From IMG/VR virus record IMGVR_UViG_2711768072_000012: DNA of 10,030 nt; one strand, given 5' to 3'. This document shows positions 230-9,628 of this stretch, in pieces. The notes below the pieces were generated by a model. The model saw only the letters and a list, made by a program, of their open reading frames with translations, did not search any database and was not told the origin of the DNA. Each line of letters opens with the position of its first letter. The stretch's first letter is position 1. Made by a program: the position numbers and the translations under genes. Origin of the DNA: a virus. Taxonomy: Duplodnaviria > Heunggongvirae > Uroviricota > Caudoviricetes.

Positions 230-424
230 ATGTCAGAGCAGGAGTTAAAACTTGGTGCATGTTATTGTGTTCTCAAGGAGCTGGTACACATGCTTCCATC
301 TACTCAGTATCAACAGTTAGTTGGCAATTTAAATCAGCGAATCGAAGCTATGTTAAAATCTGATGGTTTTAATAACGTAGAAACGCTGATGCTAAAAAGA
401 TATCTTGATGGATTAATCAGATAA
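230..424 (+). CDS. hypothetical small protein (~65 aa)
   Basis: In-frame ATG at 230 preceded by GGAGGA (221-225); the ORF track's 158..424 start is probably too far upstream. No motif recognised. Converges with the minus-strand gene ending at 413. Confidence 0.45.
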   Translation: MSEQELKLGACYCVLKELVHMLPSTQYQQLVGNLNQRIEAMLKSDGFNNVETLMLKRYLDGLIR

Positions 425-763
425 CATTTTTTTACGGCGTTCATATTCGTTAATATTTATGAAGCCTGTTGCCAGAAGCAGTTCGTTAATTTCATGGTTG
501 TTTGGCTGTTTCTGGCTCTTTGAGCTGGGATCTTCCACTTCTTTTTCTGCAAATTGTTTTGCTGTATCCTCTGTGCCATGGATATTTAAAGCTGTATCTG
601 AAAACAGCCCAGTAAACGCATCGCGCACATTACGAGCCATATTATCAGTGTCTTTTTTTGTTACCGATTCCAATTCAAGTTCGTTCAGACGATGACGAAG
701 TGTGTGTGCTGCAATCTCCTGGATTGAAGGAGGTAAATCTTTAAATTCCATCGTCAACCTCAT
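413..763 (-). CDS. hypothetical acidic protein (112-116 aa), second gene of leftward operon
   Basis: ORF coupled to the upstream 81-aa ORF. An alternative ATG at 751 has a better SD (GAGG, 6-nt spacer), giving MEFKDL... No motif recognised. Confidence 0.4.
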   Translation of the reverse strand: MRLTMEFKDLPPSIQEIAAHTLRHRLNELELESVTKKDTDNMARNVRDAFTGLFSDTALNIHGTEDTAKQFAEKEVEDPSSKSQKQPNNHEINELLLATGFININEYERRKKMLSD

Positions 764-1739: not shown

Positions 1740-1807
1740 TAGGCAATCCCTACTCTCGATGTATTAGGCATAGCCTATTGACAATTGTATTAGGCTAAGC
1801 CTAATAT
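1740..1807 (+). promoter_or_regulatory. OR/PR-like region: three operator palindromes plus rightward promoter for ydaS
   Basis: TAGGC-N3-GCCTA palindromes at 1765-1777 and 1791-1803, and a degenerate copy TAGGC-AAT-CCCTA at 1740-1752, spaced about 25 bp apart. TTGACA at 1778-1783 with TAATAT at 1802-1807 (18-nt spacer). The racR promoter presumably lies here on the minus strand. Confidence 0.5.
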
Positions 1808-2589: not shown

Positions 2590-3552
2590 ATGAGCAGCAA
2601 GCTTCATGGTCTTGTCTGGGAAGGGTGCGCCTTCACCGGCATGATCTTATCCAGGGTGGCGGTTATGGCCCGTCTTGCAGACTACAGCAATGACGAGGGC
2701 GTGTCATGGCCTGCCATTGAAACTATCCGGCGTCAGATCGGTGCAAGAAGTGAATCCACAGTGAAATCGGCTATTGCAGAACTGGCGAAAGAGGGCTGGC
2801 TGACGAAGGAAGAGCGTAAGGTCGGTGGGCGTAATGTAAGCAATATCTATCGACTTAATGTGGAAAAACTCGAAGCAGCTGCGGCGGCGGCGCGTGAGTC
2901 ATATAAACCGAAAAGAAAAATTAGCCCGGCAAAAAATGACCCGTTAACAGTTGACCCGTCAAATATTGACCCCTCAACGGTTGACCCGTCAAATTTTGAT
3001 GGATCAACTGTTGATAAAAAACTGCCGATTAGGGGGGCGATGATTGACCCCGATCCGTCAGTATTAAAACCTGATCCGTCAGATAAAAGATCTTCTTGTC
3101 CGGACGCTTCGCAACCGGACCCGCAGACGGCTGAACAGGATTTTTTAACCCGACACCCTGACGCGGTTGTGTTCAGTGCGAAAAAACGCCAGTGGGGAAG
3201 TCAGGAAGATTTGGTGTGCGCACAGTGGATCTGGGGACGAATCGTGAGTCTTTACGAGCAGGCGGCCAGCTATGATGGCGAGATCACTAGACCGAAAGAA
3301 CCCAACTGGACAGCATGGGCCAATGACGTTCGCACAATGCGGATGCTGGATGGCAGAACTCACAGACAAATTTGTGAAATGTTTGGGCGTCTCCAGCGGG
3401 ATTCGTTCTGGGTAAAAAACATCATGAGTCCGGCAAAACTCCGGGAAAAATGGGATGAACTGGTTATCCGCCTGGGGCGTTCGCCTGCGCAGCGTTGCGT
3501 GAATCACATTTCTGAACCGGACACTGAAATACCGCCGGGATTCAGGGGGTGA
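2590..3552 (+). CDS. ydaU: YdaU-like replication initiator (lambda O-like replisome organiser) carrying internal iterons
   Basis: N-terminal winged-helix-like region, then a repetitive DPxxx linker encoded by tandem 15-bp DNA repeats. Sits immediately upstream of a DnaC-like loader gene. ATG 2590 chosen over the track's GTG at 2575. Confidence 0.75.
   Translation: MSSKLHGLVWEGCAFTGMILSRVAVMARLADYSNDEGVSWPAIETIRRQIGARSESTVKSAIAELAKEGWLTKEERKVGGRNVSNIYRLNVEKLEAAAAAARESYKPKRKISPAKNDPLTVDPSNIDPSTVDPSNFDGSTVDKKLPIRGAMIDPDPSVLKPDPSDKRSSCPDASQPDPQTAEQDFLTRHPDAVVFSAKKRQWGSQEDLVCAQWIWGRIVSLYEQAASYDGEITRPKEPNWTAWANDVRTMRMLDGRTHRQICEMFGRLQRDSFWVKNIMSPAKLREKWDELVIRLGRSPAQRCVNHISEPDTEIPPGFRG
2936..3025. 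repeat. Six tandem 15-bp iterons (consensus tTGACCCGTCAAnnn): probable prophage origin of replication inside ydaU
   Basis: Units start at 2936, 2951, 2966, 2981, 2996 and 3011; the last two are degenerate. An A-rich tract and four GATC sites (3002, 3052, 3073, 3089) follow. This is analogous to lambda ori inside gene O. Confidence 0.6.
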
Positions 3553-3558
3553 CGTGTC

Positions 3559-4305
3559 ATGAAAAACATTGCGGCAGTTGGGGTTCTTGAACGTATTCGC
3601 AGACTTGCACCACAGGGGTCGGTTCCACCGTACCGGACGGTGGAGGAGTGGCGGGAATGGCAACTTGCTGAAGGACGAAAACGCAGCGAGGAGATTAACC
3701 GCCAGAATCGCCAGTTGCGGGTGGAAAAAATCCTGAATCGTTCGGGCATCCAGCCTCTGCACAGCAAATGCTCGTTTGCAAATTATCAGGTGCAGAACGA
3801 CGGGCAAAAATACGCGCTGAGCCAGGCCAAATCCATAGCTGACGAACTGATGACCGGGTGCACGAATTTTGTGTTCAGCAGTAAAACCGGCACCGGGAAA
3901 AATCACCTTGCAGCGGCGATGGGCAACCGGCTGATGGTGAAGGGGCGCAGCGTGATTATCGTCACCGTGTCTGACGTCATGAGCGTGTTGCATGACAGCT
4001 ACGACAACGGCAAATCCGGGGAAAAATTTTTACAGGAGCTTTGCGGGGTTGATTTGCTGGTCCTGGATGAAATAGGCGTTCAGCGGGAGACGAAAAACGA
4101 GCAGGTGGTATTGCACCAGATAATTGATCGCCGGACAGCATCACTGTGCAGTGTCGGGATGTTAACAAACCTGAATCATGCCGCAATGAGTACGCTTCTT
4201 GGTGAGAGGATTATGGACCGCATGACCATGAACGGTGGTCGATGGGTGACATTTAACTGGGATAGCTGGCGTCCAAATGTCAGCAATATGAGGGTTGTGA
4301 AGTAA
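3559..4305 (+). CDS. ydaV: DnaC-like helicase loader (YdaV-like AAA+ ATPase)
   Basis: FSSKTGTGKNHLAAA and DLLVLDEIGVQRETKNEQVVLHQIIDRR align with the E. coli DnaC Walker A/B region as I recall it (FSGKPGTGKNHLAAA ... DLLVIDEIGVQ). ATG 3559 lies 6 nt after the ydaU stop. Confidence 0.85.
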   Translation: MKNIAAVGVLERIRRLAPQGSVPPYRTVEEWREWQLAEGRKRSEEINRQNRQLRVEKILNRSGIQPLHSKCSFANYQVQNDGQKYALSQAKSIADELMTGCTNFVFSSKTGTGKNHLAAAMGNRLMVKGRSVIIVTVSDVMSVLHDSYDNGKSGEKFLQELCGVDLLVLDEIGVQRETKNEQVVLHQIIDRRTASLCSVGMLTNLNHAAMSTLLGERIMDRMTMNGGRWVTFNWDSWRPNVSNMRVVK

Positions 4306-4326: not shown

Positions 4327-5097
4327 ATGGAAACCGTATCTGACGCACTGAAAGCACTGAAAAAAGCCTCTTCACATGTGGTGGCAGCTCGCCTTGGAAT
4401 CAGTCGTGAAGAGGCTGTCAACGAGCTGTGGGAACTCAAAAGAAATGGCGTCGTTGATAAAACTGGTCACACCTGGTTTCTGGCTGGCGAAGGTGAATCC
4501 CGGGTAACCGAAGAGCGGCCAGTAAAATCTGAAGCACAGGATATGCTGACCGGGGAGGTCGAACAAAAAGTTACCGCCGACATGATGATTGAGTTTATCG
4601 GTCAGGATGGGGCTAAAACGTGTGAGGAACTGGCGGGTAAGTTCGGTGTCAGTACTCGCAAGGTTGCTTCCACGCTGGCGGTGGTAACCGCAACGGGGCG
4701 GCTGGCACGCGTTAATCAGAACGGTAAATTTCGTTACTGCATGCCGGGCGATAATTTACCAGCAGAGCCGAAAGCCGCGCTGGTAACGGAAAGTGATGGT
4801 AAGGCCTTTCCTCAGCCAGCAGGTGCTGCGTTACCAGTCCGGGAAGCCGCAACACAGGAAAAAATTAAAACAGAAACTGTGGCGGACATTGTGCAGCCGT
4901 TGCCATCGTTTACCGAAACGCAAGCAGATGAGCTGATTTTTCCGTCCCTTCGCAGGGCAAACTTGGCGCTGCGCAGGGCGAAAAGTGATGTTCAGAAGTG
5001 GGAGCGAGTCTGCGCCGCGCTGCGGGAGCTGAACAAGCACCGGGATATTGTTCGACAGATTACTGATTCTTCCCGCCGTGTTGTATCGGAAAAGTGA
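4327..5097 (+). CDS. ydaW: YdaW-like prophage protein (256 aa)
   Basis: ORF follows ydaV in the Rac gene order. N-terminus METVSDALKALKKASSHVVAARLGISREEAVNELWELKRNG looks like a small winged-helix domain. Function unknown. Confidence 0.65.
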   Translation: METVSDALKALKKASSHVVAARLGISREEAVNELWELKRNGVVDKTGHTWFLAGEGESRVTEERPVKSEAQDMLTGEVEQKVTADMMIEFIGQDGAKTCEELAGKFGVSTRKVASTLAVVTATGRLARVNQNGKFRYCMPGDNLPAEPKAALVTESDGKAFPQPAGAALPVREAATQEKIKTETVADIVQPLPSFTETQADELIFPSLRRANLALRRAKSDVQKWERVCAALRELNKHRDIVRQITDSSRRVVSEK

Positions 5098-5628: not shown

Positions 5629-5702
5629 TAGCAGGTGCCAGATGCATTTGTTATTCTTCATTGAATTGAGCAGTATCCTTAACAGGAACTCTAAATACAT
5701 AA

Positions 5703-6341
5703 ATGAAGATGAAAAACATGTCTGAAGTGTTGACCCAAGAAAAGCTTATTTTTGTTGCCCAGAGACTAAAGGCCCTCGCGCAGTCAGGCCTGACCTATTC
5801 AAAAGACGTCTTTGACAAGGAACGCTATGAAGCCTTGCGTGAAATTGCCGCTGGACTGCTGAGTTCGCAGTTTGATATTAGCCGCAATGATTTGTTTCAT
5901 GTATCGGAAACGGGTTACGCGACGCCCAAAACAGATGTGCGTGCGTTTATCCTGCGTAATAATCGTATTCTGATGGTGAAAGAGGCTGCAGATGGATTAT
6001 GGAGTCTTCCTGGCGGATGGGCAGATGTTGGAGATACACCTTCTGAAGCTGTGCGTCGAGAGGTCGAAGAAGAAACCGGATTAAAAGTCAGAGTGACTAA
6101 ACTATTGGGAGTTTGGGATCGTAATCTTCACGGCCATCCGCCTTTACCCTGGCATGTTTACAAGCTGATTTTTCTCTGTGAAGAAGTAGGTGGCAGCCTG
6201 TCAATCAGCCATGAGTCACTCGATGCTGATTTTTTTGATGTCAACGACCTGCCTGAATTGTCGCTTTCAAGAATTGTGCCTGAGCAGATTGCTGTCAGCC
6301 TGAGAGTAGCGAAAGGTGATGAAAAAACATGGTTTGATTAA
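5703..6341 (+). CDS. NUDIX hydrolase with N-terminal extension
   Basis: Nudix box GGWADVGDTPSEAVRREVEEETGL fits Gx5[E/D]x7REUxEExGU with D at the first acidic position. An ~80-aa N-terminal domain precedes it. Start is ambiguous between ATG 5703, 5709 and 5718; SD is weak and the upstream region is AT-rich. Confidence 0.8.
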   Translation: MKMKNMSEVLTQEKLIFVAQRLKALAQSGLTYSKDVFDKERYEALREIAAGLLSSQFDISRNDLFHVSETGYATPKTDVRAFILRNNRILMVKEAADGLWSLPGGWADVGDTPSEAVRREVEEETGLKVRVTKLLGVWDRNLHGHPPLPWHVYKLIFLCEEVGGSLSISHESLDADFFDVNDLPELSLSRIVPEQIAVSLRVAKGDEKTWFD

Positions 6342-6370
6342 CTTTCTTCTGCAACCATTAAGGAATGGCA

Positions 6371-7009
6371 ATGATATTCAACGCTAAGGGTTTTTTATTC
6401 GATATGGACGGTACGCTGGTTGATTCAACAGCCGTAGTGGAAAGCGTCTGGAGAGATTTTTGTGCAGAATACGGTCTTGATACTCAGGCTGTGATTGCTT
6501 ACGCACACGGGCGGCAAACGATTGATACACTGACGCATTTTATTGGTGCAGGTGAGAAAACCAATAAAATCGCGGCCTCACTCGAAGAGGTTGAAATCAA
6601 CACGACAGAAGGCGTTACTGAAGTAAAGGGGGCCGCTGCACTCTTATCAAAACTGCCACCGGATAGCTGGGCACTTGTCACTTCTGCAGGCAGAATGCTT
6701 GCCGAAAACAGGATGAAAGCGGCTAATCTCCCCTTACCCATAGTAATGGTGTGTGCAGAAGATGTAATGACGGGAAAACCAAGTCCCGAGGGTTACATCA
6801 AAGCAGCTTTGGCTTTGGGCCTTGAGCCTGGTGAATGCGTGGTATTTGAGGATGCATCTGCGGGTATAAAAGCAGGGCTGGCAAGTGGAGCTTCGGTAAT
6901 AGCTGTTCAGCCTGACGCTCTGGGATCATCTGAAGCCCATGCCGTCAGCGAACTGTCTGACATTATGGTCAAGATTTCCGGAGAACGTTTCAATATCATC
7001 TGTGGTTAA
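6371..7009 (+). CDS. HAD-superfamily hydrolase (beta-phosphoglucomutase/phosphatase-like)
   Basis: HAD motifs: FDMDGTLVDS (motif I), VTSAG, TGKPSPEGY (Lys motif) and FEDASAGIKAGLASGA. ATG 6371 is preferred because AAGGA at 6360-6364 gives a 6-nt spacer; the track start is 6365. Lies 23-29 nt after the NUDIX stop. Confidence 0.8.
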   Translation: MIFNAKGFLFDMDGTLVDSTAVVESVWRDFCAEYGLDTQAVIAYAHGRQTIDTLTHFIGAGEKTNKIAASLEEVEINTTEGVTEVKGAAALLSKLPPDSWALVTSAGRMLAENRMKAANLPLPIVMVCAEDVMTGKPSPEGYIKAALALGLEPGECVVFEDASAGIKAGLASGASVIAVQPDALGSSEAHAVSELSDIMVKISGERFNIICG

Positions 7010-7069
7010 TCACGTTACACAATACGCATCAATGGACGCTGAGTAGCTCGCGAGTTTTAAACTTCCAAC

Positions 7070-7093
7070 GTCCGCTTTTCGCTCAAAGCGGAC
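7070..7093. repeat. Hairpin (arms GTCCGCTTT / AAAGCGGAC) downstream of the HAD gene
   Basis: Perfect 9-bp inverted repeat with a 6-nt loop, and no U-tract. Shares its arm sequence with the hairpin at 5604-5627, and both are followed by a similar (A)TAG.AGGT tail. Confidence 0.5.
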
Positions 7094-7272
7094 TAGAAGG
7101 TTAGCTTGCGTCGGACTTGGCGTATTTAAAGAAGTGCTGGTGGTGACTGGTTGTTGTGTTCCATTTCTACAGAACAAAATCACAGAAACTATACCCAATA
7201 GTTGTATTGAATCACTGACGAGACAGCCTCATATTTATCAGGACTGGTGTACGTCCAATACAGGAGGTTGTG

Positions 7273-7362
7273 GTGCTGGTTCTCAAATGTGCGCTGGCTA
7301 TTGCTGCTGTAATGGCAATTTATTGCCTTGCTGTTGTTCTTATGGATCGCCTTTCTGATTGA
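7273..7362 (+). CDS. possible small hydrophobic peptide (~29 aa, GTG start)
   Basis: AGGAGG at 7263-7268 followed by GTG at 7270/7273. Encodes VLVLKCALAIAAVMAIYCLAVVLMDRLSD, a single predicted TM helix. The frame choice is uncertain. Confidence 0.2.
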   Translation: MLVLKCALAIAAVMAIYCLAVVLMDRLSD

Positions 7363-7369
7363 TTTCATA

Positions 7370-7398
7370 TTGGCGAGGTGACGGGAGTTAAGTAGAAT
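7370..7398 (+). promoter_or_regulatory. candidate hok mRNA promoter
   Basis: TTGGCG (7370-7375), a 17-nt spacer, then TAGAAT (7393-7398). The predicted 5' end near 7405 (GGGTGCTTGAGGC) resembles the hok mRNA 5' tac region and is complementary to the 3' segment at 7780-7792. Confidence 0.4.
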
Positions 7399-7439
7399 GG
7401 CTGCGGGTGCTTGAGGCTATCTGTCTCAGGCATGAACAC

Positions 7440-7530
7440 CAAAGGCAGATAGAGAAAAGCCCCAGTTAACATTACGCGTCCTGCAAGACGCTTAACATTA
7501 ATCTGAGGCCATATCTATGCTCTACACACG
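7440..7530 (-). ncRNA. sok: predicted Sok-like antisense RNA region (approximate bounds)
   Basis: Inferred only from hok/sok locus architecture: the antisense RNA is normally complementary to the mok leader and start. Minus strand around 7530-7560 has a weak TTGCCT-17-TAACCT promoter-like pair. Ends are not determined. Confidence 0.3.
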
Positions 7531-7729
7531 TAGGTTAGCCTCTTACGTGCCGAAAGGCAAGGAGAAGCAGGCTATGAAGCAGCAAAAGGCGATGCTAATC
7601 GCCCTGATCGTCATCTGTTTAACCGTCATTGTGACGGCACTGGTAACGAGGAAAGACCTCTGCGAGGTACGAATCCGAACCGGCCAGACGGAGGTCGCTG
7701 TCTTCACAGCTTACGAACCTGAGGAGTAA
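7517..7729 (+). CDS. mok: mok-like upstream reading frame, here in frame with hok
   Basis: ATG at 7517 opens a 70-codon frame that runs into and through hok in the same frame. The leader resembles the mok leader of hok/sok loci. Confidence 0.35.
   Translation: MLYTRRLASYVPKGKEKQAMKQQKAMLIALIVICLTVIVTALVTRKDLCEVRIRTGQTEVAVFTAYEPEE
7574..7729 (+). CDS. hok: Hok/Gef family type I toxin (51 aa)
   Basis: MKQQKAMLIALIVICLTVIVTALVTRKDLCEVRIRTGQTEVAVFTAYEPEE has the Hok TM segment and the conserved TRKxLCE...R.G..EVA.F.AYE pattern. By recollection it is closest to HokD/RelF. SD AAGGAG at 7559-7564 with a 9-nt spacer. Confidence 0.85.
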   Translation: MKQQKAMLIALIVICLTVIVTALVTRKDLCEVRIRTGQTEVAVFTAYEPEE

Positions 7730-7797
7730 GAGACCAGGCGAGGGAGAAATCCCTCGCCACCTCTGATGTGTCAGGCATCCTCAACGCACCCGCACTT

Positions 7798-7820
7798 AAC
7801 CCGCTTCGGCGGGTTTTTTA
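7798..7820 (+). terminator. intrinsic terminator (UUCG tetraloop hairpin + T6) ending the hok transcript
   Basis: TAACCCGCTTCGGCGGGTTTTTT: stem CCCGC/GCGGG, extendable to 7 bp, with a TTCG loop and six Ts. Confidence 0.7.
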
Positions 7821-7867
7821 TTGGTTGACAAAATTATGAATATGCACCAATATCTTGGTTGACAAAA
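7821..7867 (+). promoter_or_regulatory. Two direct copies of TTGGTTGACAAAA (each containing a TTGACA -35 hexamer): candidate promoter/operator of the downstream cassette
   Basis: Identical 13-mers at 7821-7833 and 7855-7867, 34 bp apart, between the hok terminator and the first cassette gene. Confidence 0.4.
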
Positions 7868-7902
7868 GTCGTTTTTTGCACGGATTAGGCGGAGAAGTGT
7901 CT

Positions 7903-8496
7903 ATGCAGAACCATCCATTCCCTTGGGAGTTCTTTCCTGAGTTAACAGAGGAGCGTTTAACCATTATAGCTGAGGAGTTGCTCAGGATACAGGATATTAC
8001 TCATGAGTTATTGTCATCGCCCTATGATGATAATTACACTCGTGGTGGTTGTACATTTGGGCGTCAGCGGCAGGCGTTGCTACAAATGTGCGTACGAAAG
8101 ACATATGACTGGTTAAGACTACTTAATCCTGGCATGGATCTTACGTTTTCAATTGGGAATGTCCCTATTCGTTTCTTTACTGATGACGCAGATAACCCCA
8201 AGAAACGCGGTTTTTTCAAAAGAAATGATGCTGATCGACTCTTTGAGTCAGAGGAGACTACTCCAACTATGCATCGCTTTGTGGTTGAAAAGCCTGAATT
8301 TGAAGGCGAGGGTGGTAGAGTCATTTTTAATGGCTATAACGTGTTTGGTGAGATCGTGTCAACTTGGACATATGGTGCGGACCGTGTTGTTATGCTGAAC
8401 TCTGTCGATGATGTACCTCCAGCACCGGTACCTATCGAACTAGAACCTATCAGTGCGTCTAAGACTGAGAAGGAAAAGAAACAAAATAGCAAATAG
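7903..8496 (+). CDS. uncharacterised protein (~197 aa), upstream partner of the HTH-peptidase; candidate effector/toxin
   Basis: ATG at 7903 with GGAG at 7891-7894 (8-nt spacer); the track's 7855 start is TTG inside the repeat. Acidic, no TM segment, no catalytic motif recognised, with a Pro/Lys-rich tail. Stop lies 10 nt before the next gene. Confidence 0.65.
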   Translation: MQNHPFPWEFFPELTEERLTIIAEELLRIQDITHELLSSPYDDNYTRGGCTFGRQRQALLQMCVRKTYDWLRLLNPGMDLTFSIGNVPIRFFTDDADNPKKRGFFKRNDADRLFESEETTPTMHRFVVEKPEFEGEGGRVIFNGYNVFGEIVSTWTYGADRVVMLNSVDDVPPAPVPIELEPISASKTEKEKKQNSK

Positions 8497-8506
8497 TGGG
8501 TGAAAT

Positions 8507-9628
8507 GTGTTTAACGGTACTAATTTAAGACTTGCTCGTCTGTATCACGAGCTATCTCTGGAGCAGGTTGCTGAGAAGGTTGAAAAAACACGCCAGTATG
8601 TACAGCGACTGGAGTCTGGTTCAGCTACTCCATCCCCAGAGCTTATAAATAAATTAGCCGAGGTTTTGCGCGTGAAGCCCGCCTTTTTCGAAGGGCAGGA
8701 ACATTCTCCTGTTAATGAAGAGATTGTACATTTTCGTAAACGCGCCTCGACAAGGATGTCAACGAAGCTATCAACACTCGCTAAGGCTGAGTTTTATCGT
8801 CGTTTTATTGATGTATTTGAAGATAACCTTAATTTGTCACCTGTTCGATTTCCTGAATTTCGTGTCCATACACAAGAAGATATCGAGCGAGCGGCAGAAA
8901 AATGTCGTATTGAGTGGGGCTTAGGCTTTGGCCCAATTGAAAATATGACTCGCCTTGCCGAGAAACTTGGGGCGTTTGTTACTTCATTTGACTCCGTTTC
9001 GGATGAAGTAGATGCACTGTCTGTTCCTCTGCGAAGGCCTTTTATTGTTCGAAATACAGCTAAAAATTCACCTTGTAGGCAACGCTTTGATATTGCTCAT
9101 GAGGTTGCCCATTTGATTCTTCATGAAGGAATTTCTACTGGGGATAGATTAACTGAATCCCAGGCAAACCGTTTTGCCTCTGCTCTGTTGCTTCCCAGAA
9201 CGTCGATGGCGAAATATTTTCCAAGACCTGTGGGGGGGAGGATAAATTGGCAGGGACTAAGCCAATTTAAGTTGACATGGAAAGTAAGTAAGGCTGCCAT
9301 TGTTTACAGGGCTCATCAATTAGGACTTTTGACTGATGAGCAGTACAGAACTGCATTTATGGGGTTGAAACGGAAAGGGGAAGCTATTGATGAAAAAGAA
9401 GATTATCTAATCCCTCATGAGCGTCCTGAGTTATTCCGTCGGGCTTTATCGTTTTTATTTGAAGAGTTAGGATACGACCCACAGCGTATAGCTGATGAAA
9501 TGGATATAGAAGTGGACATTTTTTATGAGTTAGTAGGAGATGATCTTCCTGCGGTTCATGAACTGCCAGGAAGTGGTGATGTTGTTTCACTACAATCTTA
9601 CCGAACTCTTAGAGGCAAAATTCACTAG
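8507..9628 (+). CDS. XRE-family HTH fused to ImmA/IrrE-type (M78, COG2856-like) zinc metallopeptidase (373 aa)
   Basis: N-terminal HTH (LSLEQVAEKVEKTRQYVQRLESGSATPSPELINKLAEVL). Zinc-binding HEVAH in IAHEVAHLILHE followed by ESQANRFASALLLP, the typical ImmA/IrrE signature. GTG start at 8507 with GGGTG upstream. Confidence 0.85.
   Translation: MFNGTNLRLARLYHELSLEQVAEKVEKTRQYVQRLESGSATPSPELINKLAEVLRVKPAFFEGQEHSPVNEEIVHFRKRASTRMSTKLSTLAKAEFYRRFIDVFEDNLNLSPVRFPEFRVHTQEDIERAAEKCRIEWGLGFGPIENMTRLAEKLGAFVTSFDSVSDEVDALSVPLRRPFIVRNTAKNSPCRQRFDIAHEVAHLILHEGISTGDRLTESQANRFASALLLPRTSMAKYFPRPVGGRINWQGLSQFKLTWKVSKAAIVYRAHQLGLLTDEQYRTAFMGLKRKGEAIDEKEDYLIPHERPELFRRALSFLFEELGYDPQRIADEMDIEVDIFYELVGDDLPAVHELPGSGDVVSLQSYRTLRGKIH

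Follow-up and report, generated by a model that had tools for sequence, protein, structure and literature searches.

A probable intragenic replication origin in the linker-coding region of an O-like initiator gene of a Rac-like lambdoid prophage

The stretch of DNA analysed here (the window; 10,030 nucleotides (nt), IMG/VR record IMGVR_UViG_2711768072_000012) is the early-right region of a Rac-like lambdoid prophage of Escherichia coli. It carries, at positions 2590..3552 of the plus strand, the gene for a mosaic O-like replication initiator of 320 amino acids (aa), which occupies the ydaU position of the prophage and matches PHROG 391 at 2e-115. Near the middle of the coding region, at gene nt 347-436 of 963 (2936-3025), lies an array of 15-base-pair (bp) repeats, followed by further GATC-bearing elements. 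The analysis concerned this array and the sequence that adjoins it up to position 3095, which had been likened in an earlier note to the replication origin of phage lambda.

The array had been described as six tandem 15-bp repeats. Repeats were found over the whole of 2936-3025, but only four of the units are intact, whereas two are degenerate. Unit 1 (aTGACCCGTTAACAG, 2936..2950), as read directly, is degenerate and has the right arm TTA. Units 2 to 5 (tTGACCCGTCAAATA, tTGACCCCTCAACGG, tTGACCCGTCAAATT and tTGATGGATCAACTG, starting at 2951, 2966, 2981 and 2996, respectively) each contain an intact TTGA-N4-TCAA core, and unit 6 (tTGATAAAAAACTGC, 3011..3025) consists of a left half that runs into a short A-tract. 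The intact iterons span 2951..3010, with the cores TTGACCCGTCAA, TTGACCCCTCAA, TTGACCCGTCAA and TTGATGGATCAA in this order. Every intact core is palindromic, a property that the earlier note does not mention, the best copies reading TTGAC-NN-GTCAA, which suggests binding by a dimer. The shorter motif TGA-N4-TCA occurs 11 times in the window, compared to an expected number of 3.3 +/- 1.8 (0/200 shuffles reached 11), and five of these matches fall within 2952-3081. Tandem Repeats Finder returned two periods for the segment 2916-3014, one of 15 bp (~5 copies, 71-73% match) and one of 30 bp (2.5-3 copies, 80-84% match). The longer period outscored the shorter one in the window (2925-3014, 84% versus 71-73%), in phage SfIV (locus L004, 1810-1873; 88% versus 81%) and in phage YeP2 (locus L011, 1797-1867; 80% versus 72%). 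Two flavours of unit alternate, so that a pair of iterons, spanning about three helical turns, may be the unit that functions or duplicates. A known RNA was rejected as an explanation of the array, the only Rfam match being a sub-threshold hit to mir-250 (21 bits; gathering score 58) that was caused by the palindromes.

In the frame of the gene, the array is translated as NDPLT VDPSN IDPST VDPSN FDGST VDKKL. It thus forms a tandem pentapeptide, as had been stated previously for a DPxxx linker, and this linker is predicted to be disordered: residues 112-170, encoded by the array and the GATC region, almost all have a predicted local distance difference test (pLDDT) score below 50 in the AlphaFold2 model. 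The linker is preceded by an N-terminal winged-helix domain (aa 1-105; 2590..2904, plus strand), assigned with Pfam, AlphaFold2 and Foldseek and presumed to recognise the origin. Pfam HTH_36 matches aa 25-71 of this domain with 27.9 bits, and AlphaFold2 predicts aa 1-100 with pLDDT values of ~78-93 per 10-residue block and an H-H-H-H-beta-beta-H topology. Foldseek retrieved winged helices of the MarR, PadR, ArsR and DnaD-N types, and a sequence search of solved structures returned generic GntR/FadR/MarR winged-helix matches alone, with E values of 1e-3 or weaker. The C-terminal domain (aa 182-300; 3133..3489, plus strand), which presumably recruits the helicase loader, was identified by BLASTP against lambda O and aligns with aa 171-277 of that protein at 39% identity over 119 aligned positions (E = 5e-26). 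Pfam Phage_rep_O (PF04492), which lambda O itself matches at 5.7e-36, was not found in the window initiator. With an HTH_36 N-domain in place of Phage_rep_O and a lambda-O-like C-domain, the protein is a mosaic relative of lambda O; its PHROG assignment is 391/277 ('replication initiation O-like'). The label 'ydaU', under which the gene had been described, proved wrong on grounds of homology. K-12 YdaU (b1359) was considered as an ortholog and rejected, being a DUF1376 protein that aligns with the window protein over its last 19 residues only.

Relatives of the N-domain were drawn from three sources: isolated phages (Kp4866-6, SfIV, YeP2, phiP27 and Stx2_KH16-043; 49-67% identity), 80 species-level loci from a collection with one genome per species (54-78% identity), and IMG/VR contigs. 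The species-level loci and the isolated phages together provided 84 non-identical relatives, from ~80 Enterobacterales species and several phages. In 80 of these 84 relatives, at least two TGA-N4-TCA units, spaced by 15 bp and in register, follow the N-domain immediately and in the same frame, with the family consensus iteron TCTGACGCRTCAAAA. The array was also present in the isolated phages SfIV, YeP2, phiP27, Stx2_KH16-043 and Kp4866-6. The repeats might have been absent from homologs of the initiator, an outcome that the earlier note had regarded as fatal to its reading, but SfIV, phiP27, YeP2 and the Klebsiella phages all carry them; the number of iterons varies between homologs (2-6 per locus), as that note had anticipated. 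Among near-identical E. coli prophages, several show a precise 15-bp deletion that removes unit 1, and a 21-bp deletion of one of the GATC-bearing elements described below as well as a TGA>TGC change in unit 3 were also found. Distant N-domain relatives (~40% identity) have other palindromic arrays in the same place, such as the 21-24-bp GCACCCCTGTGC-type repeats of Salmonella phage S107 (locus L009, 1719-1826) and the 24-bp GGGCAGGAGCTGCCC-type repeats of phage Min27 (locus L010, 1738-1801). In S107 and Min27, the next gene is primase/helicase or P-like, rather than DnaC.

Signals in the DNA were separated from the peptide repeat by analysing codon usage. To avoid circularity, units were defined by the peptide pattern x[DE]xSx alone, which gave 265 units from 60 species-level loci. 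The Ser codon is TCA in 239 of the 265 units (90%), compared to 13% in the remainder of these genes. At unit position 1, T is the last base of 89% of the four-fold codons, as opposed to 25%, while the encoded amino acid varies (S, F, V, I, R, P or T). In the middle codon of the unit, both the third base and the encoded amino acid are free. Correspondingly, six arm positions of the position matrix carry 1.8-2.0 bits, two third-codon positions included, whereas the spacer carries 0.3-1.0 bit. The codon effect was consistent across ~60 species. As judged from codon usage, these patterns show that selection acts on the DNA of the array and not on the predicted-disordered peptide. Fixed synonymous sites in the arms together with a free spacer are what would be expected of a protein-binding site with dyad symmetry that is superimposed on a tolerant, disordered linker, and they do not fit a peptide repeat. 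It is therefore highly improbable that the array is a coding repeat only, i.e. a slippage-prone, low-complexity (x-D-P-S-x)n linker with no function at the DNA level. Such a repeat would account for a tandem pentapeptide in a predicted-disordered region and for the in-frame 15-bp and 21-bp indels between close relatives, but not for nearly invariant synonymous arm positions next to a free middle codon. Nor does a peptide repeat predict that the conserved part is palindromic, or that both arms change in concert, as they do in the phiP27 clade.

The arms read TTGAC..GTCAA in the window clade, which is characterised by a GA[KR]S motif. The SfIV clade has CTGAC..GTCAA, and in the phiP27 clade, with CTGAA..TTCAG, the two arms are changed together and copies up to a perfect 14-bp palindrome (TCTGAACGTTCAGA) occur. 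Dyad symmetry is thus kept while the arm sequence shifts by N-domain clade. It is suggestive, although confounded with phylogeny, that the arms appear to follow the N-domain. The mutual information between N-domain columns and iteron bases, in which the top columns include the wing residues 73-83, is likewise phylogeny-confounded and lends weak support. The C-domains were assigned to types by reference-based classification; single-linkage clustering had merged all C-termini. Both N-domain clades occur joined to both main C-domain types. By this comparison of alleles, the N-domain and the array are inherited together as one exchange module, apart from the C-domain.

The border of this module, the mosaic junction between the N-module (domain, array and GATC region) and the C-terminal module, was placed at 3097..3107 by allele comparison. 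About 1,700 E. coli genomes match the C-half alone (query 511-976, equivalent to the window from 3085 onward), and the variants L146, L144 and L148 diverge after ...CCGGACG at the junction. A third initiator allele at the ydaU position, L172 (NZ_LR890349.1, 1344-1500), joins the same sequence at 3097-3107. It combines a C-half of the window type with an N-half that has no Pfam match, and carries 23-25-bp dyad repeats of its own (e.g. TCATCGGGTCAAAATGGCCCGATGA), followed by 2.8 copies of a 12-bp A/T-rich repeat (ACAGAGAATACA) that end exactly at the shared junction. The 15-bp array is absent from K-12 ydaU (NC_000913 Rac). This DUF1376 allele contains CAGATGTTCAA-like repeats of its own and, after them, an AT-rich tract in which two GATC sites lie. 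In the K-12 locus (L002, NC_000913.3 Rac; 4472-4640, corresponding to record positions 1421471-1421639), four AAGCAGATGTTCAA-like copies were located at 4472-4563, and the AT-rich stretch with its two GATC sites contains …aataaagatacagataaagatctaaaaacagatcc…. The window, L172 and K-12 alleles hence represent three unrelated N-modules at one prophage position, each with repeats and then an A/T-rich tract before the junction, an arrangement that matches the lambda plan. An active origin, oriJ, has been reported for the K-12 Rac prophage (PMC3945230; Potrykus et al. 2000, as cited in PMC11014345). At the level of sequence, the repeats and AT-rich stretch of K-12 ydaU are a plausible candidate for oriJ that follows the same plan with unrelated sequence. 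The oriJ region occupies the same position in the gene order racR - ydaS - ydaT - initiator - ydaV, but differs from the window in its DUF1376 N-domain, in having no 15-bp array and in its own repeats.

The co-inheritance of array and N-domain also bears on the idea that the palindromes are operators for another protein, such as the YdaS/Cro-like protein, YdaT, the prophage repressor or a host regulator. As a short and generic dyad, TGA-N4-TCA could be recognised by many dimeric helix-turn-helix proteins, and a further copy (TGACGTGTCA, 3550-3559) is found at the initiator/ydaV junction. On the other hand, the array is inherited with the N-domain of the initiator rather than with upstream regulators, its arm sequence tracks the N-domain clade, and it is kept in SfIV, phiP27, YeP2 and Klebsiella phages, which differ in cI, cro and cII. 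We therefore regard operators of this kind as very unlikely. The isolated copy lies over the initiator stop codon, ends at the first base of the ydaV start and could be due to chance, given that 3.3 such matches are expected per window.

Four GATC sites are located at 3002, 3052, 3073 and 3089. They fall within 91 bp (3002-3092), in agreement with the four sites in about 90 bp reported before, and have a scan probability of ~0.027, given 25 GATC sites in the window. One of them lies inside unit 5, and two are part of a repeated CC(C/T)GATCCGTCAG element. The two copies form a pair of 13-bp iteron-like elements at 3049..3082 (CCCGATCCGTCAG, 3049-3061; CCTGATCCGTCAG, 3070-3082), spaced 21 bp apart, which resemble an iteron with T replacing C at the inner arm position; CCTGATCCGTCAG still fits TGA-N4-TCA. 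In the family, GATCCGTCA was found in 64 of the 80 species-level loci, and the conserved context of the downstream sites is GATCC[GA]TCA. The 130 bp that follow the array have 16 GATC sites per kilobase (kb), compared to 3.9 per kb elsewhere. At least two sites follow the array in 70/80 loci, with the first one 40-60 bp past the array in 65/80. Neighbouring sites are mostly spaced by 24 bp (62 of 90 pairs), with a spacing of 21 bp in the window clade. Asp codons that precede a C are GAT in 61% of cases downstream of the array, in 48% in the rest of the gene and in 2% inside arrays, so that the array excludes GATC, which is moderately favoured in the sequence just after it.

The A-rich segment that had been described after the repeats proved to be weak, with an A content of 32% over 3011-3095, compared to 26% in the whole window. 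Modest 30-bp pockets of low stability are present, but nothing stands out at a scale of 100 bp, and the segment is much weaker than its counterpart in lambda. The pockets lie at 2991-3020 (98th percentile of the window) and at 3061-3090 (free energy, dG, -34.8 versus a window mean of -40.3). Across the family, the 30-bp segment of lowest stability is found ~67 bp past the array, at a median percentile of 98.6 versus 92.2 for random segments. The stretch 3056..3095 (…GTATTAAAACC…GATAAAAGATCTTC), a modest pocket that holds the GATC sites 3073 and 3089, is therefore a candidate unwinding region. A one-mismatch DnaA box (TTATCAACA, minus strand, 3009-3017) was noted at the distal edge of the array and is not significant. 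A gene for DNA adenine methylase is found in some replication modules of the initiator family, as in YeP2 (locus L011, 2977-3282) and, according to PMC3851460, in SfII/SfV, which is of note in view of the conserved GATC pair. A general linkage of phage Dam to the module was rejected: a crude DPPY/F scan gave a candidate within 2.6 kb downstream in only 4 of 77 loci.

Upstream of the initiator gene, a consensus scan identified a putative pR-like sigma-70 promoter (TTGACA-18-TAATAT, 1778..1807, plus strand; 10/12 matches). It lies directly 5' of the ydaS/cro-like gene (1814-2158) and heads the early-right operon, which continues with ydaT (2142-2567) and reads through the array, all on the plus strand. 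The initiator gene is followed by a ydaV-like gene (3559..4305, plus strand) for a helicase loader of the DnaC/IstB type, an AAA+ protein with matches to Pfam IstB_IS21 (1.3e-17), Bac_DnaA (5.5e-07) and PHROG 50 ('DnaC-like helicase loader', 8e-80).

The closest model for this arrangement is the origin of lambda, where four iterons and an AT-rich tract lie within gene O and the O protein consists of an N-terminal ori-binding and a C-terminal P-binding domain. The annotated lambda iterons occupy nt 349-433 of the 900 nt of O, and the window array nt 347-436 of 963. Both systems have repeats with dyad symmetry, then an A/T-richer linker-coding stretch and then a domain junction; they share homologous C-domains, transcription from a pR-like promoter (putative in the window), and an N-domain that is exchangeable together with the origin as a module. 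They differ in the N-domain (HTH_36 in the window, Phage_rep_O in lambda), in the repeats (15-bp units at strict 15-bp spacing, as opposed to 18-bp sites at 20-24-bp spacing), in the AT-rich tract, which is much weaker in the window, in the conserved GATC pair, which is present in the window, and in the partner gene, which encodes a DnaC-like loader rather than lambda P. In these terms, the proposal of the earlier note that the array mirrors lambda ori in gene O gains strong comparative support from position, C-domain homology, conservation and co-inheritance. That an origin can lie within a gene is an established principle, known from lambda, P22, phage L and Stx phages (PMC8022706; PMC7466680), and distantly related initiators (P22 gene 18, phage L gene 18, Stx 933W and P27) carry their own iterons within their own coding regions (PMC8022706; PMC7466680). 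Iteron number varies between these phages, with six-iteron origins in the Stx phages 933W and P27 (PMC8022706; PMC7466680). The window family (2-6 units) shares this variation with the P22, phage L and Stx origins, from which its array differs in repeat sequence, length and spacing. A further resemblance, to origins of the oriC and P1 oriR type, is that GATC sites are clustered in or beside the candidate unwinding region and conserved among relatives. With iteron origins of plasmids that have winged-helix Rep proteins, and with Dam-dependent origins (oriC, P1 oriR), the window shares the combination of a winged-helix initiator with tandem repeats and the clustering of GATC sites beside the repeats. 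Unlike these, the candidate in the window lies inside the reading frame of its own initiator and has palindromic repeats.

Taken together, we consider that 2936-3095 is probably the replication origin of the Rac-like lambdoid prophage, of the intragenic lambdoid type and located in the part of the initiator gene that codes for the disordered linker. This reading builds on the anatomy of the array, selection at the DNA level, modular co-inheritance with the N-domain and the homology of the C-domain to lambda O, all of which are established. According to the model, dimers of the N-domain would bind the (T)TGA-N4-TCA(A) cores of the four intact iterons, and probably also the two GATC-bearing iteron-like sites ~45-65 bp further on, and the bound initiators would build an O-some-like complex. 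The modestly unstable stretch at ~3056-3095 would then melt, and the lambda-O-like C-domain would bring in DnaB via the adjacent DnaC-like YdaV. Transcription from the upstream pR-like promoter would cross the site, as in lambda. In the weakest step of the model, the conserved GATC pair could tie firing to Dam methylation and SeqA. The conservation of two GATC sites at a distance of ~two helical turns makes a role of Dam and SeqA plausible, and the Dam sensitivity of the origin proposed in the earlier note is, likewise, only suggested by this pair.

Several points weigh against an origin at this site. No strong unwinding element was found, the pockets being modest and the 100-bp scale unremarkable; the least stable 30-bp segments here reach -33.6 to -34.8 kcal/mol, compared to -30.3 in lambda, where the segment is at the 100th percentile of its locus. 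DnaA boxes (TTATNCACA, up to 1 mismatch) are not enriched in the window (11 versus 9.2 expected). The loss of unit 1 and the TGA>TGC change of unit 3 in natural copies imply that not every unit is essential, or that these copies are decaying. The codon statistics and their P-values ignore shared ancestry and the descent of units by duplication, and the agreement of arm sequence with N-domain clade carries the phylogenetic confounding noted above. Since the K-12 ydaU allele is non-homologous, experiments on oriJ provide no direct support. Finally, no description of the iteron family of the window was found in the literature searched, its motif strings giving chance primer matches only; the SfIV genome paper makes no mention of an origin.

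Some of these points would also fit an array that binds the initiator for autoregulation, titration, copy control or as a roadblock, with unwinding and helicase loading taking place elsewhere in the prophage. DNA-level selection and co-inheritance with the N-domain are compatible with any cognate binding function, the adjoining AT-rich element is weak, DnaA boxes are not enriched, and the least stable regions of the window (365-464, 1762-1861 and 5652-5751) lie outside the initiator gene. This reading must, however, accommodate an array whose position in the gene equals that of lambda ori, a module boundary that, in three unrelated types of N-module, immediately follows the array, the GATC pair and the A/T pocket, and a low-stability pocket at a fixed distance across the family. 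In addition, known iteron systems use the same or adjacent repeats for both control and origin function (PMC7466680). We thus consider a purely regulatory array unlikely and favour the intragenic origin.

The replication module is widespread. The initiator gene is 99.9% identical to NZ_CP033762 626537-627514, where its coding sequence corresponds to RefSeq WP_000095673.1. In 1,085 complete genomes, its identity is at least 99%, and 1,514 carry it in full length (80% of the gene or more). Up to five initiator-matching places were found per E. coli genome, and very many database copies of the initiator are annotated as 'partial' and lie on short contigs (hits P0001-P0055). Assemblies probably often break at this gene, because parts of it are shared by several prophages in one genome. 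Rightward of the replication module, at 5703-9628, the gene content of the window is unlike that of the otherwise near-identical locus L001. This segment includes genes for a NUDIX hydrolase (5703-6341), a HAD hydrolase (6365-7009), a hok/gef toxin (7517-7729) and an ImmA/IrrE-like protein with a helix-turn-helix and an M78 peptidase domain (8507-9628).

The finding is not conceptually new, as it extends the paradigm of lambda, P22 and phage L. A bolder proposal, which we put forward only as a speculation, is that phage initiators with an HTH_36 domain define an undescribed class of origins, in which palindromic iterons at 15-bp spacing, overprinted on a disordered linker, are combined with a conserved pair of GATC-bearing iteron-like sites, ~two helical turns apart, as a licensing switch of prophage replication that is sensitive to Dam and SeqA. 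If this were true, the methylation state would directly control, at the sites of the initiator itself, its binding or the melting of the DNA. As it stands, the analysis assigns a position to the probable origin of a prophage module that is very common in E. coli. The same holds for related phages, among them Shigella serotype-converting phages and the Stx phage phiP27, whose genome papers make no reference to an origin. The analysis provides a clean, quantifiable case in which a disordered protein linker is overprinted with a DNA signal, and the origin sequence may be usable for mini-replicons or for tracking prophage induction. It also serves as a warning that the labels 'ydaU' and 'oriJ' cover at least three non-homologous initiator/origin modules at one and the same prophage position.

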